Source: an uncultured Bacilli bacterium
GTDB taxonomy: Bacteria; Bacillota_I; Bacilli_A; RF39; UBA660
DNA: 64,000 bases
Assembly (NCBI GenBank): GCA_934131005.1
Contig: CAKOYV010000007.1
Span: forward strand, 6,689 to 70,688
Direction of reading: 5' to 3'
The notes below the pieces were generated by a model that did not search any database, was not told the origin of the DNA, and saw only the letters and a list, made by a program, of their open reading frames with translations. The position numbers and the translations under genes are program-made. The stretch's first letter is position 1. Each line of letters starts with the position of its first letter. Positions 1 to 18,900 of the stretch are shown one piece after another.

Positions 1-414
1 TTATTAGAAAACATCATTATATATCCTGTAAAAAATTCTAAAAACTCATCAATCTTCATCTTTATAATTCCCTTAGCCGGATCCATAATAACAAGCCTTT
101 TATTATTAATTTTATACAAAACAACAAAATGTTCATAATTATTACAAATAACCTGACATATAGAGGGCATCTTAATTTCATCAAGATTATTTATAAATTC
201 ACTCTCATCAATTTTAAAGCTTTTAACATCTAGTCCTATTTTTAAAGAAGCCTGCTTTAAATCATAAAAAGTTGTACCATTTTTATTAGTATTTGTTAAT
301 TCTGTAATTTTAGCAAGTGGAATATTACCACCATAATATTTAATAATAGAAGCTAAACAAGCAGCACCACACTCTTTATAACCATTCTGCATCACCACAA
401 TTTTTTTATTCATC
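1..414 (-). pseudogene. N-terminal C39 (bacteriocin-processing) peptidase domain of a probable peptidase-containing ABC exporter; frameshifted, continues beyond the window start
   Basis: Minus-strand ATG at 414-412 preceded by AGGAGG. Frame A gives MNKKIVVMQNGYKECGAA, then reaches a stop. Frame +1 continues LLCLASIIKYYGGNIPLAKITEL... to the window edge. Joined, they give the C39 motif Q-x4-ECGxACL-x3-I-x-YYG. A one-nucleotide (T-run) frameshift lies near 360-364. Confidence 0.45.
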
Positions 415-1233: not shown

Positions 1234-1878
1234 CTATTTATTCATTTGGGTTGCTGATAGCTTAACATTTAATTGAATACAAGGAGTTTCTGGGTTGCTT
1301 TTAGTATATTGATAAGCCTTATTTCCCCAATAGGTATCATCTTTATCTTTTAGGTTACCATTATCATCTACAGTTTCGTAAGGCCACGTTACAGTTACTA
1401 AAAAACTTGCTACTCCACCTTTACCACTTATAATATCTTTATCTGAAGATATTTTTATTTTAAAGGGGTAATTTTTATTTATTGTATCCTCTAGTTCTGA
1501 TGAGGTCATTGACCCCTCACTAACTTCATAAGTTTTATCAAATATTCTTATACTAACTAATTCATAATAAAGCTTAGCAGATACTTCTCCATCATTTGTT
1601 ACTGTAACTTTTTGTTCATTATCCTTCATTCCTGGATAGATTTCATCTATTTCAAATTTAATATAATCACTCATAAGCTGATTATCAAATCTAAATGATA
1701 CATTCCAAGCTTTGACTTTGACATCAATATCACTATCTATCTTGTTCATATAAATAAACCAAGCAAAGGAATTACTAACAAGAAGAAGTGCTATAAATAG
1801 TAAATAGCTAAGTTTAAATCTTTTCTTTATTACTTTACAAATGGCTTTTAACACTTTATTCTCTTTTATTTTTTTCAT
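1234..1878 (-). CDS. Small secreted TasA/camelysin-like protein with SipW-cognate-type signal peptide (cassette 4 substrate)
   Basis: N-terminal K-rich region, hydrophobic core, then SNSFAWF motif resembling TasA/CalY GT(W/F)A(A/F)F. C-terminal beta-strand motif VTWPYETVDD...CIQLNVKL is shared with the other family members here. Start overlaps the upstream SipW-like gene by 1 nt (ATGA). Confidence 0.5.
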   Translation of the reverse strand: MKKIKENKVLKAICKVIKKRFKLSYLLFIALLLVSNSFAWFIYMNKIDSDIDVKVKAWNVSFRFDNQLMSDYIKFEIDEIYPGMKDNEQKVTVTNDGEVSAKLYYELVSIRIFDKTYEVSEGSMTSSELEDTINKNYPFKIKISSDKDIISGKGGVASFLVTVTWPYETVDDNGNLKDKDDTYWGNKAYQYTKSNPETPCIQLNVKLSATQMNK

Positions 1879-2441
1879 TAATTTTTCTTTTCTTTTTCGT
1901 GGATTATATCTATCACTTCAAGAAATATCATTACTGCAAAAGGAACAAAAATAATGAAATAAAAGCCATATATATTATTTACCAATTTACTAAGCAAACT
2001 TAAGATTAATAGTTTTTTAGCAACCACTCCATATATTTGATTTTCTGAGACAACTGGATCTTCTATGGTATTAGCAATTCCCTTGGTATGAAATTCTAAT
2101 TCATTACCTTTTTTTGCTATTTTAATCACTTGGTGAGTTACTATTTTCCCTTCAAATGTTCCACTTTTTCCCATATAGACAATATCATCACCTACTTTTA
2201 TCTCACTAGTGGGTATTTTTTTTGATAGTAACATATCCCCTACTTGATATTTTGGAACCATACTTTCTGTTATAATTGTAAAGACGCTATATCCACCAAC
2301 GGTTACTTTATTGTTAGATATTCTTTGTGTAAAAATAACACTTACAATTAGAACTATAAATAAAATTGTTATTGCTTTTACTATTTTATAGATAATTCTT
2401 AAATATTTATTACTTTTTATTTTATTTATTGTATTTTTCAT
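1878..2441 (-). CDS. SipW-like type I signal peptidase (archaeal/eukaryal Sec11-type), paralog 4
   Basis: N-terminal TM helix, TESMVP (SipW SGSMEP-like catalytic Ser), GD motif, VTHQV (catalytic His), C-terminal TM helix. 187 aa, typical SipW size. Confidence 0.6.
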   Translation of the reverse strand: MKNTINKIKSNKYLRIIYKIVKAITILFIVLIVSVIFTQRISNNKVTVGGYSVFTIITESMVPKYQVGDMLLSKKIPTSEIKVGDDIVYMGKSGTFEGKIVTHQVIKIAKKGNELEFHTKGIANTIEDPVVSENQIYGVVAKKLLILSLLSKLVNNIYGFYFIIFVPFAVMIFLEVIDIIHEKEKKN

Positions 2442-2462
2442 ACTTCACCAACCACATCTATT

Positions 2463-3572
2463 CTATATCTCTATTTTTTCTATTTTATTTAAATATTTTT
2501 TTATATATCTTGTATAAATATCTATAATTTTTCTATTACTTACTACTTGTTTATATTTTATTTTTCCATATTGCATAGAAACTAATCTTTTTAATTCTTC
2601 TTCGCTAATATTTTCATTTAATTTCATTAGTTCTTCTATCATATTATAAGTAATTTTAGATGTTACTTCTTCTTTTTCTTCAATACTTAATTCTTCATTA
2701 TTTAACTTATTCATAATTAAATAATTTAAAAGAAAAGTTTCATCAAAGTTGTGTTTTAAATTTCCTTTATCTTGATAGTTCTTTTTCTCTTTTTTTATTT
2801 CTGGCTTTTTCATTACTTCTTCTTGCAGATAATTCCATAACTTTTCAGCATATTGAAAATTTACATTTTTTAAGATTACATTTGTTTTCTTTATAGGAGA
2901 TGTCACTAGTGCAACATGGAGTTTAGATAAAGTTTTATACACTTCACTGCTAGTTAAATCTGATATTTGTAATTCTAATTTTTCTATTCTAGTTTTGATA
3001 TCTAATTCACTATTTTTAGATGACTTATTATCTAGTTTTGAATCTAGTTGCATTGACATATTTACTTTTTCTTTACCAATAGTTGTAGTAGCATTATACT
3101 CAATTAGTTTGCTATCTTTAACTTCTCCAGGGATTATTCCATCTTGTTTTTTCCTAGCAATAAAGCCTTTCATATTTTGAATTAAACTATAGATAAAACG
3201 ATTTTCATAAGTATTAAAACTTTCTTCTTTATTTATATTTAGTATTTTTGATGGTCTTACATTTCCTGTTTTTTTATCATAATCTTGAATTAAGTTTGTA
3301 TTTCTTGATAAGTGTTTAATACTTTCTACCGTAACTCTTCTTGCTAGTTCTATTTTTACAATATCTTCTTCATTTACAATAAAGCGATTGGGATTTCTTA
3401 AAATGTTGTCTAGATAATATATTGTATCTTCCATTCTTTCTATCCATTCTAAGTTGTTATCAACTTTTTCATAATCACTCTTGACATTTACGGTAGATTG
3501 AACACTTTGTTGAAAGTTTTTTATTTTTTTTTCATCTGTTTTTTGATATAAATTTATGATATCTAAGCCCAT
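2463..3572 (-). CDS. Coiled-coil protein encoded immediately downstream of the McrB-family AAA+ gene (McrC position); no clear nuclease motif seen
   Basis: 369-aa ORF starts 19 nt after the stop of the 3591..5111 gene. K/E-rich heptad-like C-terminal half. No unambiguous PD-(D/E)xK motif was identified by eye. Confidence 0.45.
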   Translation of the reverse strand: MGLDIINLYQKTDEKKIKNFQQSVQSTVNVKSDYEKVDNNLEWIERMEDTIYYLDNILRNPNRFIVNEEDIVKIELARRVTVESIKHLSRNTNLIQDYDKKTGNVRPSKILNINKEESFNTYENRFIYSLIQNMKGFIARKKQDGIIPGEVKDSKLIEYNATTTIGKEKVNMSMQLDSKLDNKSSKNSELDIKTRIEKLELQISDLTSSEVYKTLSKLHVALVTSPIKKTNVILKNVNFQYAEKLWNYLQEEVMKKPEIKKEKKNYQDKGNLKHNFDETFLLNYLIMNKLNNEELSIEEKEEVTSKITYNMIEELMKLNENISEEELKRLVSMQYGKIKYKQVVSNRKIIDIYTRYIKKYLNKIEKIEI

Positions 3573-3590
3573 TTAATCAGCTTCTTTCTA

Positions 3591-5111
3591 TTATGTTAAT
3601 TTTTTTAATCTTAACAAATATTCTTCACATTCTTTCATTTTTCCTTTACCAAATGTTTTATCTAAGAATTCAATATAGCCATCGATTTCATCTCTTATAT
3701 AGGATACATTTAATTGTTCAAATTTTCGTAATACTTTTCTTGCTAAGAAGTAATCTACTCCATCTACTTCTTCTCCTCCACAGGCTACATAAACAGGAAC
3801 GAATTTTTTCATGTGAGCTACTATTCTGTTACCAAAAGCTATTCTGAAGTGTTTGATAACATAGTCATCCATTACTTCTATTTTATCTAGGGTATCTTGA
3901 CTAATTGGATTATTATTAATTGCATCTTGAAATAATTTATCTAGATAAGTATAATTAATATCTTGAGCATCAACATCTTCCGGTTCAAACACTTGTCCTT
4001 TATCATTAATATCAAGAGGCATTGCTCTATCATATACTTTATCAGTTACCATAAATGTTGAATCATCATTATTAATGGTTCCTATATACCACATATTAGG
4101 TGGTATTTTTAATTTACCATCAACAATATTTTTGGGATCATTCTTCCAACTAGCACTTACTAATTCAACAATCCATTCATCTTTATTGGGCATTTCTAGT
4201 ATAGATAACATTTCCGCAAAATAATACTCTACTCTAGAAATGTTCATCTCATCCAGAATAACTGTATAAACATCATCTGTATATCCTGCTAAATACATTT
4301 CTTTTAATACTTCTGTTTCATTAAACTTTTTAGTAAATTCATTGAAATAACCAAATAATTCAGTTCTATCTCTCCATGATGGCTGAACAGATGCTACGCA
4401 AGAGTCATGTTTTAAAAATTTTCCCCAAGCATATGCTAAAGATGTTTTACCTGTTCCAGATATACCTTGTAAGATAACTAATTTAGTAGAAGCTAAGGCT
4501 GATATGAATAGTCTAATCATCTCTGTTTTATAATAAAGTTTTAAGTGAGAAGCTGAAAAATTTCTAAAATTTTCTACTAATTCAGGTAGCGTAAAATTAT
4601 TATTATAATTTTTTATTTTATAGTTAGCAAAAGCTTCATCAAGAGAATGTAATTTAGGAAAACGAATTCCTTCTCCATCTAGTGCTGCATCTTTATCTTT
4701 ATCTTCTTCAGTACTCTCTTCTCCTGGTTTTAATCCCAAGTGAGAAACTTTCATTGCCAAAATACTTTCTTTTTCTTTCATTAAACTGGATACTTCATTA
4801 TTTAAATTTGCTACTTCTTCTAATAAATCTTCTTGTTCTACTATTGTCTTTCTGAATCTTAAATATTTTCTGATTAAGAAGAATATTATTAAAAAAATAG
4901 ATAAAACTAAAACAATGGTTAAAACAATAGCAAGAATAACAAATACCCATTCTGGGCCATTAAAATCATCTTTATAAAAGTTAATGATTTTAATATATGC
5001 GGATATATTAAATATTTCTTTTATTCCATTTACTAATCCAAAGAAAATTGTTTTTATTCCTGAAAAAAACTGCATTAAAAACTCATATAAAAATCTTAAG
5101 AATGTCTGCAT
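3591..5111 (-). CDS. Membrane-anchored McrB-family (AAA_5/MoxR-like) AAA+ GTPase/ATPase
   Basis: N-terminal TM helix (WVFVILAIVLTIVLVLSIFLIIFFLI) followed by coiled coil. Walker A VILQGISGTGKTS. McrB-type Walker B / sensor ILDEMNISRVEYYFAEMLSILE (compare McrB IIDEINRANLSKVFGE...LE). IGTINNDDSTF...VYDRAMPL (compare McrB IGTMNTADRS...ALRRRF). Confidence 0.65.
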   Translation of the reverse strand: MQTFLRFLYEFLMQFFSGIKTIFFGLVNGIKEIFNISAYIKIINFYKDDFNGPEWVFVILAIVLTIVLVLSIFLIIFFLIRKYLRFRKTIVEQEDLLEEVANLNNEVSSLMKEKESILAMKVSHLGLKPGEESTEEDKDKDAALDGEGIRFPKLHSLDEAFANYKIKNYNNNFTLPELVENFRNFSASHLKLYYKTEMIRLFISALASTKLVILQGISGTGKTSLAYAWGKFLKHDSCVASVQPSWRDRTELFGYFNEFTKKFNETEVLKEMYLAGYTDDVYTVILDEMNISRVEYYFAEMLSILEMPNKDEWIVELVSASWKNDPKNIVDGKLKIPPNMWYIGTINNDDSTFMVTDKVYDRAMPLDINDKGQVFEPEDVDAQDINYTYLDKLFQDAINNNPISQDTLDKIEVMDDYVIKHFRIAFGNRIVAHMKKFVPVYVACGGEEVDGVDYFLARKVLRKFEQLNVSYIRDEIDGYIEFLDKTFGKGKMKECEEYLLRLKKLT

Positions 5112-5122
5112 TTCATCACTTC

Positions 5123-6079
5123 CTAAATTGCTATATAATCATTATTATCTACTAATTCTTTTAATTCTCCATTAAAAAAGATATTAGTAAAGTAATCTGT
5201 ATTTCTACCCTTTATCATTATATAGTCTTCATATTTATTAATTATAAGTCCAAATGAATATCCTTCTTTAATTAAGGAACATATCTCTTCTTCATGACTT
5301 AAGAATTCAGCTGGACTAATAGAAAGAATTATATTTTCTTTGATAATATCTGTATTAAATATTTCTTTAAATTTATTTTTTCTAGAGATAGTTTCTAATA
5401 ATTTAGGAGAGAATTCTACTAAATATTTCTTCTTAAAGTTACCTTTTATAATATTTTTTAAGATTAAACTACTAACTAAATAATATTCTACTAATAATTT
5501 ATTTACTGCTACTATTGATTCTGTTTTTACTTTATCAATAGCGTACTCACTATAAAGATTAGGAATAGAGATATTATCATTTAAATATACAATATAGATA
5601 GATGCATTTCTAATTTTCTTGCAGGTTATATAAAAATCATTAGAAGAAGTTTTTTTTAAGTACTTTTCTTTTCTATGCCAATCGGATAGTACTTCTTTTT
5701 TAAAGTTAGAAACAAAATCATCATCATATATTCCTAATTTTTCCTGCCTTATTTTATTTAGTTCTATAGCTTCTTGTTGAAGAGTTTGTTTACCTTTATA
5801 TTTTTTTACACCATCTAGATAATAAAGCATTTTAAATAATTCTAAAATAAATTTGGAAACATTACTTGAATTATTTAGATAAACTTTCTCTAGAGCATTA
5901 TTAAGAGTTGCTTCAAGAGTGCTTTTATTTGCTATTTCTTCATTATAATATCTAATATTTGCATATTCTTCTATATATTGTTTAAATGTGTCTTTCTTAA
6001 AATACTTACCCATAATCATCTTAGTATAAACTTCTAAGTTATTTAAAGAAAAATCTACATATTTTGTTATAATATCCAT
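5123..6079 (-). CDS. Hypothetical cytoplasmic protein (318 aa) in the SipW/TasA-like operon
   Basis: Long ORF, tightly spaced with neighbours (12 nt to next gene). No confident motif. Confidence 0.45.
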   Translation of the reverse strand: MDIITKYVDFSLNNLEVYTKMIMGKYFKKDTFKQYIEEYANIRYYNEEIANKSTLEATLNNALEKVYLNNSSNVSKFILELFKMLYYLDGVKKYKGKQTLQQEAIELNKIRQEKLGIYDDDFVSNFKKEVLSDWHRKEKYLKKTSSNDFYITCKKIRNASIYIVYLNDNISIPNLYSEYAIDKVKTESIVAVNKLLVEYYLVSSLILKNIIKGNFKKKYLVEFSPKLLETISRKNKFKEIFNTDIIKENIILSISPAEFLSHEEEICSLIKEGYSFGLIINKYEDYIMIKGRNTDYFTNIFFNGELKELVDNNDYIAI

Positions 6080-6095
6080 TAAAATCTCCTTCTTT

Positions 6096-7076
6096 CTAAC
6101 TATATTCTACTTTAATAATAGAAGTATTATCTGTATTTGGATAAGTATAATTTATGGTTGTGTCTTTTTTATAGAATTTAACTTGCTTACTAGATAGAGC
6201 TTCAATAGAAAAGGTAATTGCTGTTACATATTCATAATTTCCAATTTTTTTAGTAGTGGTGTTTATTGCACTTAAATAGGATTCGTCTGTCATATCTAAA
6301 AGTACTTTTTTTGGATCAAAAGTCAATGTAATGAGAGCTGATTTACATTTGTTTTTTTCTTCATCAGTTAAGGATAAATAAGTTGAAATATCTATTTGGG
6401 AATTAACTTTATATTCCCCAAATGCTTCTTTAACTGTGTAATAATCAAGAGTATTTGTTATTTTAGTTTCTAAATAAGGACTTCCCTTTTTATCATTAAT
6501 TTCATAGGATAGCCCATAATAGCCTACGATTAATTTAAAGGTACCCGTTATCTTTTTTCGATATGGTGATGTAGAGATTGCCTCTACCTTAAGAGTCACA
6601 CTATCTTTATCATGGAGCGTTGTTGATGTTGGAATTGTTATTACCACGCTAAAGCTATCTTGGTTGCTACTAGATGGTATCATACTTTTTTCTTTATCAT
6701 CTTTAATACTACAGACAACATTATCTGAACAAGAATACTTAATATTATAATAAATATCACTGGTACTTTTTACTTTGCTATTACTTAAACTATTCATATT
6801 AAAGGTCACTTCATATTGTCCTACTCCTGACCAGTTAGTCATTTCAATATTAGCTCCTTTGCTAGACAATTTATCACAGTTAAAATAAAATCCTTTTGTT
6901 GATAAATAATAATCTTTAATATCTAAATAGGCATATTTCGCATAACTAGCACTACTCCCTATTAAAATAATCAATATAATATATATAACGATTGCTTTAA
7001 ACTGCCATTTCCCATTTTTTTTAATTATTAATATTTCTTTTATTTTGGATAATTTTGTTTTGATTTTTTCTAACAT
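6096..7076 (-). CDS. Secreted protein with SipW-cognate-type signal peptide (cassette 3 substrate)
   Basis: N-terminal TM/hydrophobic core IVIYIILIILIGSSASYAKYAY, with the (S/T)YA(K/W)(Y/F) motif. Located 4 nt downstream of a SipW-like gene. Confidence 0.5.
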   Translation of the reverse strand: MLEKIKTKLSKIKEILIIKKNGKWQFKAIVIYIILIILIGSSASYAKYAYLDIKDYYLSTKGFYFNCDKLSSKGANIEMTNWSGVGQYEVTFNMNSLSNSKVKSTSDIYYNIKYSCSDNVVCSIKDDKEKSMIPSSSNQDSFSVVITIPTSTTLHDKDSVTLKVEAISTSPYRKKITGTFKLIVGYYGLSYEINDKKGSPYLETKITNTLDYYTVKEAFGEYKVNSQIDISTYLSLTDEEKNKCKSALITLTFDPKKVLLDMTDESYLSAINTTTKKIGNYEYVTAITFSIEALSSKQVKFYKKDTTINYTYPNTDNTSIIKVEYS

Positions 7077-7080
7077 ATAA

Positions 7081-7560
7081 TTAGCACCTTAATTCTTTTA
7101 AGATAGAATATACTTCGTACAAAAATGCTACTAAAATTGGAAAAATAATAATTACTAAATATCCCCATTTAGATTCAAGAATTGATAAAAGATTTCCAAG
7201 AAAAGGGATAACAATACTATTGTTACTAATACCAATTAAGAATTTTTTATCAACAACTGTATCATCAATAACAACACTATCTTTATTAATGCTATTAATT
7301 GTTCCCGTTTGAATATAATATTTTTTTCCTCTAGATACATAATAAAATACTTTCATTTTTTCTTTATAAGTACTTTTATTATTCACAATAACTAAATCTC
7401 CTTTATTATAAGTTTCAGTTTTATCATTTTTTACAATTATCAAAGTATTATTATTAAATTCTGTAGTGTTATAGTCATTGTATGCTAATAAACATATTGT
7501 GGTAATTACTGCTACTACAGTATAAATAATAATTATAATATGGCTAATTTTCTTTTTCAT
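7081..7560 (-). CDS. SipW-like signal peptidase paralog 3, apparently degenerate (catalytic Ser/His motifs not found)
   Basis: Same architecture as the other SipW paralogs: N-terminal TM, GDLVIV box, C-terminal TM YLVIIIFPILVAFLYEVY. Lacks the S-M/L-E/V-P and T/Y-H motifs present in the other three. Confidence 0.45.
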   Translation of the reverse strand: MKKKISHIIIIIYTVVAVITTICLLAYNDYNTTEFNNNTLIIVKNDKTETYNKGDLVIVNNKSTYKEKMKVFYYVSRGKKYYIQTGTINSINKDSVVIDDTVVDKKFLIGISNNSIVIPFLGNLLSILESKWGYLVIIIFPILVAFLYEVYSILKELRC

Positions 7561-7762
7561 AACTACTATACCTCTCCTACTTTCTCCTATTTAAGTATAG
7601 CACATCTATACTAACATTGTAAATAAAATATGCTATGCAAGTAAAAAAATAAATTTTCACATAGATTTTTATTGAAAGTGCACAATTAATGTGCAATAAG
7701 TTTTAGAAACATATATAATATCTTCTTAAGCAATTTATTTGTCATTAAGGAGGTATTGAAAA

Positions 7763-8640
7763 TGACAAATTATTCTCATTTGTCTTATGAAGATAGAAAA
7801 AAATATTGAAGATGGATTAAATGAAAATAAATCCATAAATCAAATTGCTAAAGAATTATGTAGAAATCATTCTACACTCTTAAGGAAAATAGATAGAAAC
7901 AAAAAACATTTGGAACCATCCATCAACCTAGAATAATTATAAAATTAATCATCCTGATATTTTGGATTTCAGCAAAAGCTCTTTTTATCGTTATATTAAA
8001 AATGGAATTTTTGAATTGGTCTTTTAGATTTTCTGAGAATTGTTAAATATAAAAAAAGAAAAAAATCAAGCCAAAGAAGAACAAAAAAAGAACGTGAAAT
8101 ATAGATACTGTTGAAAGTTTACAAATTGTTTCCTTACATTACTTTGAAGAAAGTTTAAATTCATGCTTATATTTAAGTTAGAATTCCAAACAACTGATAA
8201 AGTAACAAGAATTTTTAAAGTATTATAAACTCTTATTCCTTTAGATATTTATAAAAGTTTATTTCAAATTATTCTTACTTACAATAGTCACGAACTTTTT
8301 GATGTTAGTAATATTGAATGTATTCATTCAACTGGTAAATATGTTCCTCATCTATTTTTGGGTAATTCGCAAGCTTCTAGTCAAAAAAGTTTCATTGAAA
8401 AAAATCATGAATTCATTAGATATATTTTACCTAAAGGTCCTCTTTCAAAAATATTACTCAAGAAGACTGTAATTTAATTATGAATAATATTAATTCATTA
8501 TGTAGAGATTCATTGAATAGCAAATCACCTTATGAAGCAATGCTATTCTTATGTGATGAAGATATATTAAAACTATTAAACTGCCATTATATTGAACATG
8601 ATAGTGTTAATTTATCAAATAATTTATTAAAACAAAAATA
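7763..8640 (+). pseudogene. IS30-family transposase remnant (multiple frameshifts/stops)
   Basis: MTNYSHLSYEDRKKY* / IEDGLNENKSINQIAKELCRNHSTLLRKIDRNKKH matches the IS30 N-terminal HTH (M.Y.HLT.EER..I......S...IA..L.R..ST..RE..RN). Later fragments NIDTVESLQIV (DDE region) and SLNSKSPYEAML (IS30 C-terminal ...R.CLG.KTP.E) appear in different frames. Confidence 0.5.
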
Positions 8641-8724
8641 ATTATAACTCAAACTATATTTATTCTTACGGCAAACAAATTGTCATAAATCCAATACTAT
8701 TTAACAAATCAAAGACACCAGTTT

Positions 8725-9309
8725 CTAATTATCAACAATTTTACTAGAATCAACATTTAGCTCAACTAATTCTATATTATCTTGATAAATAGCATCTTCA
8801 TCACTTTCATTAAAATAAATTAGTAAAGTATATGTATTTACCTTGGGTGTAGAAAAATATAATTTTTCTTTATTAAAAGTAAATTCTTGAAAATAAGTAC
8901 CGTCATCATCTTTTTCTATTACACTATTGTTATCATTAATTAAATTTACACTACTACTATCTCGATAATCACTATTTAAATACAATTTATATTGTAGTGG
9001 TAAATTTGTAGTAGTTCTAATTTTTAGAACATACTCAATATCAACATCACTTATCTTACTTTCTTTTTGATTAGAAATAGTAAAATTATAGACATATGGC
9101 TCGCTTCTTGGTACTAAATCACTTATTTTTATACTTTTATTTAACTTTCCAACTTCTAATAGATAAAAAGCTATACTAGTATCTACATTTCCTATTCCAG
9201 ATGATTGATATTTAGAAAAAGTTACCGGAAGAAATTTAATCAAGATTAATAAGAATAAAAACAAAATGTTAATTTTAGAAATAAGAAGAAATTTCTTTTT
9301 ACTAAACAT
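8725..9309 (-). CDS. Small secreted TasA-like protein (cassette 2 substrate)
   Basis: N-terminal signal-like hydrophobic segment with TFSKY motif. C-terminal LLIYFNESDED...IELVELNV resembles the family C-terminal motif. Lies immediately downstream of the SipW 9321..9911 gene. Confidence 0.45.
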   Translation of the reverse strand: MFSKKKFLLISKINILFLFLLILIKFLPVTFSKYQSSGIGNVDTSIAFYLLEVGKLNKSIKISDLVPRSEPYVYNFTISNQKESKISDVDIEYVLKIRTTTNLPLQYKLYLNSDYRDSSSVNLINDNNSVIEKDDDGTYFQEFTFNKEKLYFSTPKVNTYTLLIYFNESDEDAIYQDNIELVELNVDSSKIVDN

Positions 9310-9320
9310 AATATCCCTCC

Positions 9321-9911
9321 TTATTTATCTTTTAAAATAGGTATTTCTATTTCCTCTTCTTTTTTCTTTTTAATTCTTTTTTCTTTCTGTTTTTGTATTT
9401 TTTTTCTTTTAGTTTTATTATTATAGGAGAAAGTAAAACTAAATAATACTAAAGTAATAGTTAATAACGTAAACACCTTTGGAGTCATTAATACCTTTTT
9501 CCATATCCCAAATCTAGGTATTACTAAGACCACCTTTCCTAAAACATTCTCTTTTTTTACTTTTGCATCTTTGCTGTTATTAGCATCCCCCTTAGTAGTT
9601 ATTGTCTTACTGTCTATTTGAATTACTCTATGGGTTATAAACTCTTTATTTAAATTATAAGTTATTATATCTTTTTCTTGATAAGTACTATTTAATTTAA
9701 CAATTACTAAATCATTTTTATAAACAGCTGGCTCCATAGAACCACTAGCAATTTCAAAATAAGTATAACCAAAAAGACTTACATAGTCTTTTTTTTGAAT
9801 ATTTAAAGAAATATAACTATAAGTCATAAAAATAATTATTATGCTTATCAAGAATATTAAAATGTAGGTAATAATATTACCTATTTTATCTATTACTTTC
9901 ATCTTTATCAT
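9321..9911 (-). CDS. sipW: SipW-type type I signal peptidase (canonical motifs), paralog 2
   Basis: EIASGSMEPAVYKNDLVIV (SGSMEP catalytic Ser box), FITHRVIQ (His box), N- and C-terminal TM helices, K-rich C-terminal tail. 4-nt overlap with the upstream gene. Confidence 0.7.
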   Translation of the reverse strand: MIKMKVIDKIGNIITYILIFLISIIIIFMTYSYISLNIQKKDYVSLFGYTYFEIASGSMEPAVYKNDLVIVKLNSTYQEKDIITYNLNKEFITHRVIQIDSKTITTKGDANNSKDAKVKKENVLGKVVLVIPRFGIWKKVLMTPKVFTLLTITLVLFSFTFSYNNKTKRKKIQKQKEKRIKKKKEEEIEIPILKDK

Positions 9912-10507
9912 CCTTTAGCACTATATTGATATACATTAACATGAATAGGCAAATTAATTTTAGTATCAGCTTTAGAACCTAATTCATAATCAGCTAAGTT
10001 ACTTTCTTCATTATCATTATCTTCCCAAACTAATTCAATTTTAATATCATACTTTTCTTTGTTCTTTATCTCTTTAAGATGAGCTATTCCTTGATAAGTA
10101 TTTTCACTTACCAAAGAAAATTCATGCCCTCCCACTTCACTAACAGATGTAACTTTAATTCCTGATTTGTTAAAAACTTCTGTATCAATTACTATTCTAT
10201 ATAAAAAAGAAGTATCTGTTGTCGAAGGATCAATTATGACATCAAAACTCCCAACTGAACCTGGGGCTCCCTTACCTTCTCTAACATGATTAGCATTACT
10301 CCAATTAATACTCGTCAAATCAAATTCTTCATCTTCTGTCGTTAAAGACGTTAGATAGGTATCTCCTACTCTGATTTTCCACCTAGCAAGTGCTATTGAA
10401 GGCGAATCAGTGATACCACTTTCAAATAACGAGTATGTTTGAGATAGCTGAAAAATTAGAACAAAAAGACCTATTAAAGTCATGGTGAAAAGAAAATACT
10501 TTTTCAT
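9908..10507 (-). CDS. Small secreted TasA/camelysin-like protein (cassette 1 substrate)
   Basis: Signal peptide ending QTYSLF. ARWKIRV motif shared with the 25029..25664 protein. C-terminal ELVWEDND...INLPIHVNVYQ family motif. Confidence 0.5.
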   Translation of the reverse strand: MKKYFLFTMTLIGLFVLIFQLSQTYSLFESGITDSPSIALARWKIRVGDTYLTSLTTEDEEFDLTSINWSNANHVREGKGAPGSVGSFDVIIDPSTTDTSFLYRIVIDTEVFNKSGIKVTSVSEVGGHEFSLVSENTYQGIAHLKEIKNKEKYDIKIELVWEDNDNEESNLADYELGSKADTKINLPIHVNVYQYSAKG

Positions 10508-11044
10508 CTAGGCCTCTTTTAAATTGCGTTTTACTTCAAGAATGAATTCATATAATTCATATAAGAAGATAAATAAAACTGGTAGTATGATTACAAGCAA
10601 GAATATCCATCTTGATGATAATATTTTTAAAATACTTCCTATTTTATGATAAATAACAGTGTTTTTAGTTGAACCTATTACATATTCACTAGAATATTCA
10701 TAATTTCCTTCAATTTCATAAGTTGTTTCTGTATTAGTAATTTTTCTTTTAGAAATAACTTTTGCTAAATTAACAATAACAGTATTTTTTTCTTTATTTT
10801 GTTCATAGAAAAAGATAGAATCATTAGAGGTAATATCATCATTACCTGTATCTGTTACTACTAATAAATCACCCTTTTTATAGGCAGGTTCCAGTGAATT
10901 ATCCGAAACAATTATAAAGCTTTTATCTCCTATTTCAGTTATTCCATATTTATTATAATTTAATAAGCATATTGTCATTAATATTACAACTAACATGTAA
11001 GGAATTAAGATGATTCCTCCTAGTATCTTTAATATTTTTTTCAT
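10508..11044 (-). CDS. SipW-like type I signal peptidase, paralog 1
   Basis: N-terminal TM, SDNSLEP (Ser box variant), GDLLVV, VIYHK (His), C-terminal TM. Abuts the downstream substrate gene. Confidence 0.55.
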   Translation of the reverse strand: MKKILKILGGIILIPYMLVVILMTICLLNYNKYGITEIGDKSFIIVSDNSLEPAYKKGDLLVVTDTGNDDITSNDSIFFYEQNKEKNTVIVNLAKVISKRKITNTETTYEIEGNYEYSSEYVIGSTKNTVIYHKIGSILKILSSRWIFLLVIILPVLFIFLYELYEFILEVKRNLKEA

Positions 11045-11084
11045 TATTACACCTTCTATTCTACAAATTTAGTATACCATAGTT

Positions 11085-12620
11085 TTAATTACTTGGCAAT
11101 TGAATTATTCCTAATTTATTTACATTAACCAAAAATAATATATCACCATAGTCTAGATTTAATTCTTCCATATATTCTATTATTTGTAGTTTTAAGATTA
11201 TATCTATAAAATTAGATAAATTTGAATTAATATCTGTATCTGTAATTTTATAATTAATTAATCGATAGCGATCAGCTATTACCCTAGGAATATTTATTTT
11301 TTCTTTTACCGTTATATTATTTAATAGCTGATATTTTATAGAAATAATTTTATCTTTAGTATCTTTTATTGCTTTATTAATTTCATCATTAGTACTCTCT
11401 TCCATATTATCTTCAAATAGTTTTCTTGTATAAGTATAGTACGATAATAAAAAATCTAATATTTCATAATATGTTATATTATCATTCATAAGAGAAATTT
11501 TTTCTTTTACTTTATTATAATCTAGCAAATAATATTTTTCTTTTAAATCATCTAAAAGATTATTTATTTTTAGGAGAATCATTTCTGCTTTTTCTTGTTT
11601 TTTTATTTTTAGTAAAAATCGATATTTTTTCTCTTCTTTAAATAATTTTTTTTCTTCTTTTTTTATTTCTTTTAATAAATTTTTATAGATATTTTTTTCT
11701 TTATCTTTTTCTTGATAATTTTTTATAAAGTCATCGATTAAGAACTTTATTTCTAAGTAAAATTGATATTCTATTAGACAGTTATACAAACCAAAGATAG
11801 ATTTATTATCTTCCTTATCAAAAAAGGTATTTATATATTTTTCTTTATCAAGAAAGTTATTTATATATTCTTCTTTTTTTTCTTTGCTATAAGATTTAAT
11901 ATCTAATTTTTCTTTTAAGAATAGATTAATTATATTTCCTTTTGTTTTAATTTTATTTTCTTTAGCTTGATTATATTTTTCTAAATAAGTATTTTTTAAT
12001 TCAAGAGATGTATTTTTTTTATTTATATAATACTTAATAAACTTTTTTTCATAGTAATAATATAAATATTTAAAGTTAAGGCCTATATAAAATATAATGT
12101 TAGGACATTTCCAATAGATTTCATTAAAGCATTTTTGTAATTTATTGCTTTTTATGTTATCTATATTTTCAAGAAAACATTCCATATAAATAGAAGTATA
12201 AGGACCATATTTAAAGTCCTTTTTTTCTAATTTAACGCCCACTTTAGAAAAAATTTGAATTGCTTTAGATATATCTTCATTTAAGTTAGTAAAATCATCT
12301 TTATAGAAGTGAATAATTTCATAGATATAATAATCTAATTTAGATTTTTCGTATGGAGTATTCCATTCGTTTTGTAATTCTATTTCTTCTTTTATTTTAT
12401 CTAAAAGTACATTGTCAAAAGAGATGAAATTTGATGATTCATAAAATTTATTTGCTCTTATATTTATTTCTTTTAAAACATCTTTTTCTAATGATTGATA
12501 GTGTTCTAATTTATCGTTTAGATATTCTAAGTATTTTGCTTTGTTTTTTTTATTATTTTTAGGCATTATTTCTAATGTTTCTTTTAAAAAATTAAATTCT
12601 TTACTTAGTTCATTCTTCAT
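11085..12620 (-). CDS. Hypothetical K/E/N-rich coiled-coil protein (about 511 aa); first gene downstream of the giant surface-protein gene
   Basis: Long ORF. Probable ATG start at 12620 (MKNELSKEF) with AGGAG 8 nt upstream; the ORF track extends to an upstream TTG at 12650. Confidence 0.45.
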   Translation of the reverse strand: MKNELSKEFNFLKETLEIMPKNNKKNKAKYLEYLNDKLEHYQSLEKDVLKEINIRANKFYESSNFISFDNVLLDKIKEEIELQNEWNTPYEKSKLDYYIYEIIHFYKDDFTNLNEDISKAIQIFSKVGVKLEKKDFKYGPYTSIYMECFLENIDNIKSNKLQKCFNEIYWKCPNIIFYIGLNFKYLYYYYEKKFIKYYINKKNTSLELKNTYLEKYNQAKENKIKTKGNIINLFLKEKLDIKSYSKEKKEEYINNFLDKEKYINTFFDKEDNKSIFGLYNCLIEYQFYLEIKFLIDDFIKNYQEKDKEKNIYKNLLKEIKKEEKKLFKEEKKYRFLLKIKKQEKAEMILLKINNLLDDLKEKYYLLDYNKVKEKISLMNDNITYYEILDFLLSYYTYTRKLFEDNMEESTNDEINKAIKDTKDKIISIKYQLLNNITVKEKINIPRVIADRYRLINYKITDTDINSNLSNFIDIILKLQIIEYMEELNLDYGDILFLVNVNKLGIIQLPSN

Positions 12621-12914
12621 TAATATCCAACTCCTGCTTTTCTTTTTCAAGATATGATAAAATTTCTTTTATAGTACTATATGTTTCCAAAATTTCTTCA
12701 TTAGATAGTTCTTTTATTTTTTGATTCATGATATCACCCATCTTCTATTTATTTAATTATAACGAATTTTTTTAAAATTGAAAAGTACTTAATTAAAATA
12801 TTTTGGAATAAATAGTTTAACTAAGTTGTAAAAATAAATTCCACTTTGAAAGAATAAGTTACATCTTTGGTTAAAAAAGTATACATTTAATTGATATTTT
12901 TTAAAATGTAGACA

Positions 12915-12941
12915 ACCCATAGAAAAAATCTATGGGTTGCC
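12915..12941 (-). terminator. Candidate intrinsic terminator downstream of the giant surface-protein gene
   Basis: Perfect 10-bp inverted repeat CAACCCATAG-N7-CTATGGGTTG, about 45 nt after the ORF stop, followed on the minus strand by a T/A-rich tract. Confidence 0.4.
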
Positions 12942-12988
12942 GACATTCTGACTTTTTCTAATATAAATTATTATACAGAAAAAGTTTT

Positions 12989-15900
12989 TTATTTTATAAT
13001 TATATATTTTACTACTTCTCCAACATAAGTGTTATTATCATATAAAAGAAATTTGATTTGGTATGTACCTGTTTTTAATTTATCTTTTAGATTTAATATA
13101 TATTGGAAGCGACTGTTAGGACTATCCATTACTAAATATTCATTTGCTGTGTTAGAGGTTTTTAAAGTATCTGTAACATAATCTTGTAAATTTACTTTAG
13201 TATAACTATATTTATAAATATCTGTATAGGTTCTTCTATATAATGCTACACGAATGCTAGGTTTCTTTAAGTTAGATTCATATTCTAAATTAAAATCTAA
13301 CATTTTACTTTTATTTGAAGTTCTTCCCGTTTTAGCATCTACATAATTATCAGCATCATCCATAGAAACTGATAAACCAAAGTTTTCATTGACAATAGTT
13401 ACTTCTTTGCTGATAGTAGTGGATGGCGCTAAGCCATAATAAATTCCATCTGCCGATCCAAACGTTTCTATTTTTAAGTGATATTCTCCACTAGGGATAT
13501 TACTGTTTGTTGTATCTATAGTAATTTTACTTGATACATTAGCAACCGATTCTGCAATATTAAATCTTACCGTTCCATCTTGTCTAGGAAAATAATTAAC
13601 ACCTTCATAGATGAATTTTGTACCCAACAAGGTTGCTCCGTTGACTAAATTATCTTCACTGTCATATAATGATAGTCTTATTCCTAATTTTTGGTTATAG
13701 AAATTAGTATCAATAATATTTATACTTCCTGTTTTTTGTTGGTCAAAATTAGTTATTACGTTTAATTCTACAGAAGAACCTACGTATATGGTATCATTAC
13801 TTAAAGTAGCTTCTGCATCAATAATAGCATCTTTTCCTTTATATAAGTTGTAAGTCATTTTTTGTTGAGCAATATCTAATACTGGTATTACAGGATTGTC
13901 ATTTTTATCTCTTAATTCCATTAGTAAGTTTTTCTTCAGGACAGTAGCATCTATATTTGCTTCTTTCAAATCTACATTAAAGATAAATTCTTCTTCTGCT
14001 TTTTTATTGGTACTATCATAGTACCTATTATTAGCATCACTATCACTATAAGTATTATTAGCACTTGAACTACCCATTTTAATAAATCTAGAGAACGGAT
14101 AACTGATTTCTCCTTCGGTATAAAGTTCATTTAGGCTATTTTCATAATCTTCTTTACTAATTACATAATAATAATATTCTGGTTTATCACTACTAGCAAA
14201 GTCAATCATTGTAATTTTAGTATTTTTAGGTAAGGCATAATTAGAAACTAGACTTCTGTAATAGCCATCTTTATATGGAGTAAAATTACTTTTTTTAAAT
14301 AGCGAAAAATAAGTACTGAAGGTACTGGTTGAAGTAATATGAACATTACTATTAGCGAACATTTCATATTGATCTCCTACCGTTATAGCTCCTTCATAGT
14401 TATCTCCATCATATAATGCTGATGATAAATTTACTTGAATGTTTACTCTTTGTATTTTACTATTTAAATCATCAATAGGTGTTGATACCATCAAAGAAAT
14501 TGTAACACTACCTAAATCAGCAGAAACATTTAAGTTTTTAGAGTGATATAGATAGAAAATAAAACTTGGTATCGTGGAAGAATTTTCACTTTTATAGGTT
14601 GTAGTTCCTTTTACTTCACTTCCCTTTTGAGTGATAAATTCTGTATCACCTTTGGTAATCCATCCGTTTGTTCCTGTTTTTATGGATAATCCAAAATTTT
14701 TGTTGGCTTCTTCTGTAGTTTTTGCATATCTTGGAATATCTTCGCTTGAAAGTAGTTCTATATTACTAGATAAGTTATCGTAATTAACTCCTAGAACATG
14801 AAATTCTGTATTAGGTTGATAATAGTTAAGTAATTGTAATTCATATGTTCCCAGAGTAGAATATTTAGATGCTGTTAGAGATAGGTCAATTACTTCAACT
14901 GACTCTCCTACTACCCATCTATAGTAGATGGTATCATTAGGTGTTGGCTCTATATAATCTTGTTTTATTGTAGTTCCATTTTCTTCTGGATAATTGGTAT
15001 AAAAGCCATCTTTATAATAGTTATGATTTTCTTTATGTTGCCCCATGACATAGCTTCCAGTTGAGAAATGATAAATTTCTGAACCACTAATCGTATCACC
15101 ATAATTGTATTTATCTGAATATAGGGCTGTTGTTATTTTTCCATTTCTATCTTTAGTAAACATTCCGAAGAATGTCATTCCACTTACTTCTCCATAGGTT
15201 GCTAATGATTCATCATCAGAGATGTTTAGGTTTTTGCCTTCTAGCATGTAAATACGATTTTCACCATTCTTGGCCACTTTTTGGTTTTCTTTGTCAATGG
15301 TTACTTCGACATTTTTTTCTTTTCCATCAATATCAACTAGACTGGAATATTTTTCTAGAAGGTTTGTTCCTTTATTTAAATATAATACTGAGCCATTCTT
15401 TAGTTTTAGATGTTTTATTCTACTAAAGGTAAATAATTCATTTTTATATTTGTTAGTTCTATCAGTTGCTCCTAATAATTCTATGGCACTGTTATTTAAG
15501 GTAACTACATCTGCTCTTTGGATTGAGACGTTTGTTTTGTAATTATCTCCATTACCATAATTATTGATATTTACATAGCTATAACCACCTGATGATGAGG
15601 CATTTCCACTACCCAAGATTGAGCCTGAAATTATATAATTGGTGTGCTTAGAAGCATCTATATTTATGTTAATTCCTTTTGTAACACTAATAAATTTAAA
15701 GTCATAGTCGACACTACCACTGGCATTTGCTTCTCCTCCTCCAAAAACAGTCCCTCCTATTATGATATCATCTTTTTGGTAATCAGTAGCATCTTCAATG
15801 GTATTAATTCCAATATTCACGTAAGTTTCTCCATAAACAACCGAGGTATTCGCTCCACCATAGACGTTTCCTAAGATAGTTGCTCCTGCTATATTAACAT

Positions 15901-18900
15901 AGCTTTTAGCACTATTTTTATTGGTACAAGTTATTGCATCACCTGATGACGTAAAGTCATTTTCACATCCTGTAGCAGCAGCATTTCCTCCTCCAAATAG
16001 GTGTTTTGTGATTACTGTTTTTCCAGATACATCTACTTCATTTCCAGTTACAACGACAGCTGTTTTACCGTTGCCACCGGCATGAACACTTTCTCCTATG
16101 GTACTATCGGTAATTTTGGTTATAGCATTACCTAGAACTGCTCCATCATTGCCACCTCCATAGGTATTTCCTGAGATAGTGGCATTTTTTATTAAAACAC
16201 TTGTATCTCCATCTACTAAAGCAGCATTTCCTCCTCCATAGATATCTCCTTTAACTGTAGTTTTATCTAAGATGTTTAGAGAAGTGTCTTTTAATATACT
16301 AGCCTCATTCCCTCCTCCATAGATAGCTTTTAGAATAGTAGCATTAGTAGTTGTAACGTTAGGTTTATTTGTAACTGCTTTGTTTCCTCCTCCATAGATT
16401 GAACCATAACTTCCACTAGTTAAGTTAATATTACTAGTTTTAGTTAATCCACCTTCATTATTTCCACCATACATATTATTAACATATAAATCATTATAAT
16501 AAATTGTTTTAGTATCTGTTCCATCTGAATTATGACCTACTAATATATAACCTACAATTTGAAAATCAGAATAGTCTACGTAAGAATGAATACAAAATTC
16601 AAAAGAATGAGTTGAATTTGCTGATAAAGCATTTGCACCATACCATTGATTTGTTTGGTTGGAATGAAATACACCATTAATTTCTTCAACATTCGTTCCT
16701 GACCAGTTAGAGTCAAAAACAGCATCAGTGGTTATTAAGTAAAAATCCCAATTAGTATAACTTGTTGTTGAAGCATTGTGAAGAGTAACATTAATTTTTT
16801 CACTAGATTTTATTCCTAATGGATTGGTTTGGTTTACAGTACTAGTATCGAAAGAAACATCTGCATATAAGTTACTATTACTTTCTAATTCTTGAGGTGT
16901 ATTTTTTATATTAGTAGTAGTAACATTTCCTAATACATTAGAACCTCCAAAAATATTTTTTATATATCCTTTATTTAAATTTAAATGTGTAGTAATAACA
17001 CCAGCACTTTTTCCTCCTCCAAATAAATAATCTATTTTTCCATGAATTATATTTAGATTTGAGGTAGTTGTTTCTGCTTCTAGTCCTCCTCCATAAATGG
17101 AAGTAATAATACCACCTGTTACTGTTACATTAGAGTTTACGGTTGTTCCTCCCAAATTATTTCCTCCATAGACACTGTCTGCTATGCCGTCATTTATGTT
17201 GATATAACTAGTATGAACAGTTCCTTTTTGGTCAGATCCCCCAAAAACATTGGTAGCTCTGTTATTTAAATTAACATTAGTTGCAGAAACGATATCCGTC
17301 TCTCGACCGCCTCCATATACATCGGTAACATCTCCTCCATCTATTGATACATTACTTGTATTAGTTGTTCCTCCAATGTTATTTCCACCGTAAACATTTG
17401 TTACTTTACCTGATTTTACATTAACATTACTAGTTGTAACATCTCCACTTGTATTAGACGCACCAAATAAGTTAGTAACTGTCCCTCCATTTAATAAAAC
17501 ATGACTGATATCAACTTTTGCTTGATTACCTCCGCCATATCCATTAGTGGTAGTTCCTCCATAAAAATTAATGTTTGGTTCGCTTACTTCTGTTTGATTT
17601 CCTCCTGCATAGGCATTTGTTATTTTTCCTCCATGAACATTTACAGTTACACTTCCATTTGGAGTTCCCCTTTGATCGGATCCGCCATAAACATTGTCAA
17701 TTATTCCACCTTTAATATCAACAGCGACATTACCTAGAACATAAGGTGTATAAGTACCATTACCTTCTCCTCCTCCAAAAACGCTATTTATCGTTCCAGA
17801 TAATACTTCAATATTCGTATTTTTAGAAGAAATGGTTGTTGAATTACTTGCTCCGTTAACTGTACCAAAAGCACTTCCTCCATAGATAGCATTTTCTATT
17901 TTTAAGTTTTCATTACTCTCATTTTCTATCCCTGTTATAATTTTTACTTCTCCTGTTACAAAAGTACCTGGACTTGATGATGATTGATATCCACCTTCTC
18001 CTCCTCCATAACAAGAAGTTCTGACTGTACCTGATAAGAGATTTAGAGCAACATCTCCATAAACTGTTCCTTTAGTTCTTGAACCTCCATAGATAGATCC
18101 TTCTACCAATCCTCCATTTAGAGTTATATTTACTTTAAATTCTTTACTAGAGGTACTTGCTCCATTATTATTTCCCCCACCATAAACATTTCCTTTTATA
18201 GTACCTCCTAATAGAGAAATATTGCTATAATTTGAATTACTGCTACTATTAATTCCAGTAGCCCCGTAGTTTCCTCCTCCATAGACATTTCCTAAGATAG
18301 TCGCGTTAGAATCTACAATAATTGTTGAATTATCATTAGTCCCAATTGAATCAGTACCTGATTTACCATTACCAATCCCAAAGACTGATCCTGCTTCAGC
18401 ATTCCACAGTTTAGTTCCATTATTTACATTATCTTCCTTACCAATAACAGCATTTCCTCCTATATAGATAAATGAACTACCTGATAATTTACCATCTCCA
18501 TCAGAACCTATGTAACCATTAGAGCCTCCAAAAATTTGATAATTAACAACTCCACCAGTTACTGCTATGATTCTATTTCCATAAGTGGTACTAAGTCCCG
18601 CACCTCCTACTATTGCATCAACTTCTCCTCCTGTTATATACATATATATATCATTTAGACTATCTCGATTATCACTAGAAGTTGGTCCCCCTATTAGATT
18701 ATAAATCCATCCCCCTTCAACTTTAACTTTTTTTGGAGCATAATGATCTCCATATCCTCTACCACCAACATAGATACCTGTTGCATAATCTGATTTTCCT
18801 GATCCAAATTTCCCACTTTTTACAACAAAATCAAAGATTAGACTAGTAGTTGTATTAGTGGCATAATAATTACCTCCACCCCAGCTTGATGAAGCACAAA

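Follow-up and report, generated by a model that had tools for sequence, protein, structure and literature searches.

What could a membrane-anchored relative of the restriction protein McrB be doing in the middle of a SipW-type signal peptidase operon? The locus that raises this question lies in a stretch of 64,000 nucleotides (nt) from an uncultured Bacilli bacterium (contig CAKOYV010000007.1, positions 6,689 to 70,688; the whole stretch is called the window below) and consists of a gene for a McrB-like nucleoside triphosphatase (NTPase) followed by a gene for a McrC-like partner. The original prediction, made from the letters of the DNA, offered two options for this pair, namely a variant McrBC-like defence module inserted in the island, or a membrane ATPase co-opted for the assembly or secretion of TasA-like fibres. 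Our analysis assigns the pair, with very high probability, to the CoCoPALM class of systems named by Bell et al. (2024, eLife 13:RP94800; PMC11090510), who deferred its fuller analysis to a later paper. When identity and function are combined, we consider it probable that this is a CoCoPALM-type system integrated with SipW-dependent surface-protein biogenesis; the specific version in which the NTPase is an assembly motor is put forward tentatively. The window has a GC content of about 24%, and the minus strand carries every gene across 1234-20644. All of the predicted open reading frames (ORFs) were found, on the minus strand, and the pair with its parts is as follows (TM, transmembrane).

3591..5111, minus strand: McrB-like NxD-clade NTPase, 506 residues, membrane-anchored (ORF; PDB matches to McrB only)
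4872..4946, minus strand: single TM helix of the NTPase, residues 56-80 (mean hydropathy 3.47)
4749..4850, minus strand: short leucine-heptad, coiled-coil-like linker of the NTPase, residues 88-121 (read directly from the sequence)
4017..4544, minus strand: AAA+ (McrB-type) core of the NTPase (motifs and PDB matches)
2463..3572, minus strand: McrC-like partner without nuclease, 369 residues (DUF2357 domain, beta-hairpin, helical tail)
3144-3494, minus strand: DUF2357 domain of the partner, residues 27-143 (Pfam)
3024-3125, minus strand: long beta-hairpin of the partner, residues 150-183 (AlphaFold2 model)

Every McrB-type motif string on which the family assignment had been based is present in the NTPase. 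The string ILQGISGTGKT holds the Walker A core GISGTGKT (residues 216-223, nt 4443-4466), the Walker B LDEMN (residues 286-290, nt 4242-4256) is followed by ISRVEYYFAEMLSILE, IGTINNDDST spans residues 343-352 with the N-x-D signature at nt 4065-4073, and YDRAM spans residues 360-364 with an invariant Arg362 at nt 4026-4028. On searching the PDB with the single NTPase sequence, E. coli McrB was the sole match (E = 1e-3), and a profile of 36 diverse relatives also found McrB alone (3e-7), with no other AAA+ protein at E <= 0.01, so that the alternative of a MoxR or dynein-like clade fails. Pfam AAA_5 scores the window NTPase at 13.2 bits (cut-off 22) and matches 30 of the 36 family members at E <= 0.1, the best at 6.5e-8. 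These AAA_5 matches in the relatives, together with the McrB-only PDB matches of sequence and profile, place the motifs beyond chance. The residues that are invariant in the 36 members include G216, G219, G221, K222, D287, N290, N347, D349 and R362. Position 350, directly after the invariant N347-x-D349, is D or E across the family, i.e. the signature is N-x-D and not the canonical NxxD, which is exactly the signature described for the NxD clade (PMC11090510). An exhaustive family search returned 8263 clusters at 50% identity, of which 761 fall below 1e-30; all have the Walker A ILxGxSGTGK[ST]. The public collection has the exact window NTPase in 78 blocks. Four N-terminal forms are present in this family: one TM helix (the window type), two TM helices, about four TM helices, and a soluble form with a Lys-rich long coiled coil. 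It may be noted that such a membrane-tethered ATPase had been called unusual under either option; the membrane anchoring stands, but with more than 8000 clusters that include 1-, 2- and 4-TM forms, and with a class already named, the rarity has to be toned down.

The N-terminal part of the NTPase begins with 55 conserved hydrophobic or amphipathic residues ahead of the TM helix, a pattern kept in the 1-TM class. The stretch RKYLRFRK comes directly after the helix, and by the positive-inside rule the NTPase domain is inferred to face the cytoplasm. The linker that follows has about four heptads with the core L95/L102/L109/I116 and the other core position at V99/V106, and a crude heptad scan leaves it below threshold. 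Of the predicted TM helix plus coiled coil, the helix is thus strong and the coiled coil, though short, is plausible. Scans of Pfam and NCBIfam gave no match to a DNA-binding or specificity domain on the NTPase. As judged from its sequence, the protein is an NxD-clade member of the McrB family with an N-terminal segment, a TM helix and a short leucine-heptad linker in place of the DNA-reading domain, and this replacement would set the AAA+ ring at the cytoplasmic face of the membrane.

The partner starts 18 nt past the NTPase stop (the gap had been given as 19 nt) and matches Pfam DUF2357, the N-terminal domain of McrC, at 43.8 bits (cut-off 23.3). The AlphaFold2 (AF2) model of the partner has a pLDDT (predicted local distance difference test) score of 69 and is composed of a helical bundle, a long beta-hairpin and a helical tail, the tail (residues 271-365) being of low to moderate pLDDT. 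The alignable part covers 105-138 residues and the remainder is helical, while the crude heptad scan flags residues 18-46 and 341-368 only. Therefore the description of a coiled-coil protein in the McrC position is right for the position and not for the generic coiled-coil protein; as modelled, the partner is a truncated McrC, with a DUF2357 domain only and a helical tail. The prediction also had no PD-(D/E)xK nuclease in this protein, and we agree: family searches gave no nuclease match, and the alpha/beta core of such an enzyme was not found in the model. Loose D...(D/E)xK pattern matches do occur, as expected of a K/E/D-rich protein, and none of them lies in an alpha/beta fold, so a cryptic nuclease was rejected. 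The partner loop at residues 106-116 carries the invariant P107, K109 and L111 and has an AF2 pLDDT below 50. As a candidate contact, it might engage the Asp of the NxD signature in the NTPase. In McrBC, a conserved Arg/Lys of McrC engages the signature Asp of McrB, and the DUF2357 of McrC inserts into the hexamer and boosts GTP hydrolysis (PMC11090510). The comparison with McrBC of E. coli and Thermococcus gammatolerans (PDB 6hz4, 6ut6, 6ut5) gives a common AAA+ core with Walker A/B, sensor Asn and Arg, the same adjacent co-directional gene order, and a McrC N-terminal fold common to the partner and McrC. It differs in that the window NTPase has NxD instead of NxxD and a TM segment instead of the DNA-binding N-domain, and in that the partner is without the PD-(D/E)xK nuclease. 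Having neither DNA-binding domain nor nuclease, the pair is a McrBC derivative and not a restriction system.

The pair is not an insertion, as one of the two original options required, but an integral part of a tightly spaced 7-gene operon, with intergenic gaps of 4-21 nt and one overlap. The gene order is p159, p326, p318, NTPase, McrC-like partner, SipW187 and p214, and a promoter-like site (7623-7594) lies ahead of the first gene, p159. The other members of the operon are listed below.

7081..7560, minus strand: p159, SipW-like pseudo-peptidase with two TM helices, first operon gene (NF046067, 4.8e-5)
6096..7076, minus strand: p326, secreted or anchored small beta-sandwich paralogue, signal anchor end SASYAKYAY (hhalign to p194, 95% probability)
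5123..6079, minus strand: p318, 318-residue protein directly upstream of the NTPase gene (matches none of Pfam, NCBIfam, PADLOC, PDB)
1878..2441, minus strand: SipW187, SipW-type signal peptidase I, 187 residues (TIGR02228, 8e-21)
1234..1878, minus strand: p214, secreted beta-sandwich protein, signal anchor end NSFAWFIY, putative SipW substrate or fibre subunit (AF2 model)

SipW187 scores 74.6 bits against TIGR02228 (cut-off 51.85) and, in the alignment, keeps the catalytic Ser (ESM) and His (THQ). To see how far this arrangement is kept, we compared 80 species-level genomes with an NTPase 54-81% identical to the window protein; these are gut and rumen metagenome-assembled genomes labelled Bacilli, 'Tenericutes', Erysipelotrichaceae and Clostridia including Acutalibacteraceae. 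A locus labelled Thomasclavelia (L050) also occurs in the collection. In all 80 genomes the pair has SipW-family genes on its flanks and lies in one kind of cluster, which comprises two intact SipW-type peptidases, two pseudo-peptidases, four secreted beta-sandwich paralogues and usually a giant protein, and a DUF2357 gene follows the NTPase wherever downstream sequence exists. A partner found without the ATPase would have spoken against the prediction, and in the comparative loci it was never seen apart from it. A giant-protein homologue adjoins the pair in 41 of these 80 loci, many of which are on short contigs. In close relatives the giant-protein module is downstream of the pair, with rpmE, murA and dnaB as the upstream flank, whereas in the window the module is upstream. 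The linkage of the pair with SipW survives this rearrangement, which argues for function and not accident. On checking the neighbourhoods of homologous pairs, as had been suggested, they were found beside SipW genes with flanks that are not defence islands, and DNA restriction is on this account very unlikely.

The gene directly upstream of the NTPase gives a further connection to SipW. Among 72 informative loci this position is held by p318 in 45, by a SipW-like gene in 15, and by a fusion of SipW and p318 in the other 12. The fusion is 633-756 residues long, with an intact SipW at the N-terminus (QTGSM, THR, GDAN), TM helices at about residues 12 and 140, and the full-length p318 domain as the C-terminal part after the second helix (L052:7748-9916, L057:7731-10001, L071:7749-10004 and nine other loci). 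As Rosetta-stone evidence, the fusion implies that p318 works with SipW as its cytoplasmic partner. For p318 itself, no match was obtained in Pfam, NCBIfam, PADLOC or PDB. An EAL-like reading of its C-terminal consensus GxxFAxxLDxxF was considered and dropped, since 33 members gave no Pfam match and the PDB no relevant match at E <= 1.

The same linkage recurs in a second TM class. In a metagenome scan seeded with the multi-TM class (about four TM helices), 47 of 63 loci have a SipW-like ORF immediately upstream of the NTPase, and the 45 distinct SipW-like sequences examined are all intact in Ser, His and GDxN (SGSM / HR / GDxN). An ORF of 400-470 residues lies downstream of the NTPase, with DUF2357 in several loci, and 90 secreted-protein ORFs upstream, in 39 loci, have a GF[AS][AS]W signal-anchor end. 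Profile hidden Markov models of p318 and of the secreted proteins of the 1-TM class detected no counterparts in the multi-TM loci. The trio of SipW, membrane McrB and McrC N-terminal domain is conserved in the two TM classes. The multi-TM operons from human-gut metagenomes (L093-L153, e.g. L094:6972-14760 and L130:6347-13899) start with two small secreted GF[AS][AS]W proteins, an intact SipW-like protein of 320-370 residues, a 4-TM McrB-like protein of about 605 residues and a McrC-like protein of 400-470 residues. After the McrC-like gene come ORFs that by appearance are a putative ABC-transporter ATPase and permease, and at the end a protein of about 800 residues with an N-terminal hydrophobic segment and a separate putative lipoprotein, these two as judged by their N-terminal sequences only.

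Variants of the pair were also seen. At L089:7595-11164, and also at L090 and L092, a McrC-like (DUF2357) protein of 1047-1190 residues adjoins a McrB-like protein of 800-870 residues with 4-5 TM helices, with no SipW nearby; the L089 McrC-like protein, the one scanned among these three, carries a GNAT acetyltransferase domain (PF13302, 6e-13). In Clostridia (L063:11569-13740, L066, L067, L082) the McrC-like protein has 677-821 residues, the extra half being without Pfam match, and in L063, L066 and L082 a protein of 2000-2600 residues comes directly after it. The Clostridial loci have a SipW-like protein of 234-306 residues directly upstream of the NTPase, with Ser and His kept in the two checked (L063 and L066), and in these two no p318 homologue was detected.

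Upstream of the operon, past an IS30-like remnant, the window carries a second module of related genes and, above it, the gene of a giant protein.

8725..11044, minus strand: second module, p178 to p194
8725-9309, minus strand: p194
9321-9911, minus strand: SipW196, canonical SipW (SGSMEP/THR/GDAN)
9908-10507, minus strand: p199
10508-11044, minus strand: p178, pseudo-peptidase
11085-12650, minus strand: p521, no matches
12989-20644, minus strand: giant protein of 2551 residues, signal anchor end TTYALTY

The second module is thus read as p521, p178, p199, SipW196 and p194, and the giant gene has its own strong terminator-like hairpin (12941-12911, 13-bp stem). The whole cluster has 12 genes, among them SipW paralogues both active and pseudo, those of the four secreted paralogues and that of the giant protein, and housekeeping genes start at about 26 kb of the window. 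Four of the genes are of the SipW family, two intact and two pseudo-peptidases. SipW196 is above the TIGR02228 cut-off with Ser and His kept. By alignment, p159 has neither the catalytic Ser nor the His and p178 is without the His, and both keep two TM helices. Such pseudo-peptidases are conserved across species beside the secreted paralogues and are reminiscent of the inactive pilus chaperone SipA of S. pyogenes. The 1.1 kb between p194 and p159 (7577-8724) has no long ORF and contains broken plus-strand pieces of an IS30-type transposase (7787-7936 and 8299-8641, plus strand), of which a 49-residue piece matches HTH_38 at 4.8e-9; a small HTH_38 gene is also called on an independent contig bearing the identical ATPase. 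At the other end, positions 1-413 (minus strand) encode the N-terminal 137 residues of a C39-peptidase ABC bacteriocin exporter of the PCAT type, cut by the window start (phmmer about 5e-26 to the PCAT1 chains 7n87 and 4ry2). The next 800 nt or so, up to p214 (414-1233), are without an ORF of at least 60 residues, and the convergent p199-like gene that relatives have downstream of p214 is absent from the window.

The original label of a SipW/TasA operon can be divided in the same manner. By hhalign (probability 93-97%), p214, p199, p194 and p326 are paralogous secreted proteins, and the AF2 model of p214 (pLDDT 78) has an N-terminal TM helix and a beta-sandwich. Neither Pfam Peptidase_M73 nor any PDB profile matched p214 or the p199/p194 families. 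In a Foldseek search with the p214 model, TasA (5of2) came at rank 4 with E = 0.034 and a probability of 0.92, the best probability and TM-score of the list, and the TapA model TIGR04087 matches 4 of 65 members of the p199/p194 family. TasA homology was therefore not detectable by sequence, with weak fold and TapA hints remaining. With two ORFs past TIGR02228 as against these weak hints, 'SipW operon' is solid and 'TasA-like' is a weak lead. The giant protein abounds in YGG(G/S)N-type repeats and has no Pfam match, and its signal-anchor end TTYALTY resembles those of the small paralogues. The cluster showed neither a sortase nor an LPXTG motif.

Among known systems the closest description is that of CoCoPALM, a TM and coiled-coil McrB with a McrC bearing helical extensions and neighbours of the signal-peptidase family (PMC11090510). 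The window locus agrees in having an NxD McrB-like GTPase with a TM and coiled-coil N-terminus, a nuclease-less McrC with helical extension, signal-peptidase neighbours and a Bacillota host, and it is accordingly filed, by description, in this named and uncharacterised class. It differs in that the FtsB homology of the N-terminus was not reproduced at significant scores. The class and the basic idea of membrane reuse are already in the literature. The anatomy of the 12-gene cluster is new here, with its active and its pseudo SipW paralogues, the secreted paralogues, the giant protein and the SipW-p318 fusion, and so is the multi-TM sister class. CoCoNuT and PDC-M26 share the NxD GTPase clade, and their soluble long-coiled-coil relatives have about 33% identity over the NTPase and lid, but these relatives are soluble, are paired with nucleases (PMC11090510), and are without SipW neighbours in the few loci seen. 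On the secretion side, the tapA-sipW-tasA operon of B. subtilis and the sipW-bsaA-bsaB-bsaC operon of C. perfringens likewise place an ER/archaeal-type SipW (ER, endoplasmic reticulum) next to small secreted beta-sandwich substrates; they have no NTPase, McrC-like protein, pseudo-peptidases or giant protein, and for the bsa operon the accessible text of its paper describes no NTPase, the mention of McrB in that paper being taken as unconnected with the operon. For p159 and p178 there is a precedent in S. pyogenes, where, according to the available part of the report, pili cannot polymerise without SipA, a signal-peptidase homologue that has no activity (PMC4049620). Like SipA/LepA, p159 and p178 have the signal-peptidase fold without catalytic residues amid pilin-like genes, whereas the S. 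pyogenes pili, as far as that part goes, are sortase-dependent and have no associated NTPase.

The domain identities, the membership in the operon, the trio and the SipW-p318 fusion are shown; how the components might work together is inferred from the McrBC mechanism (PMC11090510). Six TM helices and the heptad linkers would tether the NTPase hexamer to the membrane, and NTP hydrolysis would be switched on when the McrC-like partner inserts its DUF2357 stalk. The hexamer would be coupled to SipW via p318 and the cytoplasmic tail of SipW, with an output that is mechanical or allosteric on SipW/p318 instead of DNA cleavage. As a result, the signal-anchored paralogues and the giant protein could be cleaved, extracted or released from the membrane, or polymerised. 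In this scheme the McrB-like ring, the McrC activator, p318 and the SipW-type and pseudo-peptidases would form a sortase-independent, NTP-driven machine for the extraction, processing and polymerisation of signal-anchored beta-sandwich subunits and a giant adhesin in gut Bacillota, which we regard as possible but doubtful. The NTPase would do here much what the cytoplasmic ATPase does for type IV pili. In type IV pili and type II secretion, too, subunits anchored in the membrane are served by their own membrane peptidase and by a hexameric NTPase on the cytoplasmic side. This is analogy only and not homology, as the NTPase is of McrB type as against PilB/GspE, the peptidase is SipW as against PilD, and the subunits are beta-sandwiches as against alpha-helical pilins.

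Three other explanations have to be weighed against the integration of the pair with surface-protein biogenesis. The pair could be a stand-alone anti-phage module derived from McrBC, e.g. a membrane sensor that triggers abortive infection by way of its TM helices or of an effector not recognised as such, and merely lie beside surface-protein genes. The family does descend from type IV restriction systems, and nuclease-less McrC homologues are also found in CoCoNuT defence systems (PMC11090510). The NTPase moreover matches PADLOC PDC-M26A at 5.6e-33, but over the GTPase domain only (residues 191-314, profile positions 314-438 of 724), i.e. the shared core; the soluble coiled-coil relatives are covered over a longer stretch, a full-length match of all PDC-M26 subunits failed, and no McrC-like partner matches PADLOC. 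No nuclease, HEPN or other effector domain is present in the pair or the adjoining genes, the flanks are housekeeping genes, and a scan of 2.9 million viral contigs returned only 3 distant NTPase matches. With an invariant SipW-family linkage in 80 species, found again in the second TM class, and a SipW-p318 fusion directly upstream of the NTPase, a defence module is improbable. A role of the NTPase in cell division or the envelope, FtsB/FtsL-like and unrelated to the neighbouring secreted proteins, would accord with the published description, which calls the CoCoPALM N-terminus FtsB-like and has the McrC homologue 'usually' with a coiled coil (PMC11090510). FtsL models do match the TM and heptad region of the window NTPase, but weakly (TIGR02209 of NCBIfam, E = 0.03; PF04999 of Pfam, E = 0.08) and short of every cut-off, and FtsL is absent from the 25 Pfam families that most of the 36 members match; the N-terminus is hence treated as a TM helix with short heptads and not as an FtsB homologue. 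There are also no division genes nearby, and the 2-TM and 4-TM classes swap the N-terminus yet keep the SipW linkage, which leaves a division role highly improbable.

The third explanation keeps the connection with SipW and changes the task, making the NTPase and partner a GTP-dependent inside-out switch that gates SipW cleavage and thereby the release or retention of an adhesin or fibre subunit. A loose analogy is the control of LapA by LapD/LapG. In its favour, the core across classes is an intact SipW, a membrane NTPase and a McrC-like activator; 12 species have SipW fused to the cytoplasmic p318 domain, the pseudo-peptidases could hold substrates, and McrC-type proteins are known to activate McrB hydrolysis allosterically (PMC11090510). 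Searches of Pfam, NCBIfam and PDB gave none of the components a sensor or second-messenger domain, and sequence analysis alone cannot separate the switch from the motor model; we rate it as unlikely.

Several points weigh against the integration of the pair with SipW-dependent surface-protein biogenesis. The confidence of the partner model is moderate (pLDDT 69), a coiled coil in the partner is not clearly supported, the FtsB/FtsL similarity of the NTPase is not significant, and the secreted proteins have weak TasA homology. Among annotated proteins, those closest to the NTPase belong to a defence-candidate model, and 14 of the 63 multi-TM loci are without SipW nearby. The CoCoPALM proposal was a one-paragraph computational inference with a supplementary figure, without operon anatomy or mechanism (PMC11090510); the class was named in 2024 and no member of it is studied experimentally, and a literature search found no later dedicated CoCoPALM paper and likewise nothing on PDC-M26. 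Also, according to the accessible accounts, the known SipW/TasA fibres assemble extracellularly by strand exchange and need no cytoplasmic NTPase, so the need for a motor here is unexplained. Yet of the two original options, co-option for fibre assembly or secretion is the one we favour, in agreement with the CoCoPALM proposal, though with the TasA-like label not established.

If the integration with surface-protein biogenesis is true, a defence-system motor, that of McrBC, would have been turned into part of a cell-surface assembly apparatus, and a widespread, unstudied fibre or adhesin pathway would be present in abundant gut and rumen Bacillota. Were the motor version true as well, pilus or adhesin biogenesis would gain a new class, one whose motor came from a restriction enzyme. 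Together with the trio of SipW, membrane McrB and McrC N-terminal domain, the SipW-p318 fusion provides concrete and testable interaction hypotheses for a class known until now by name only.

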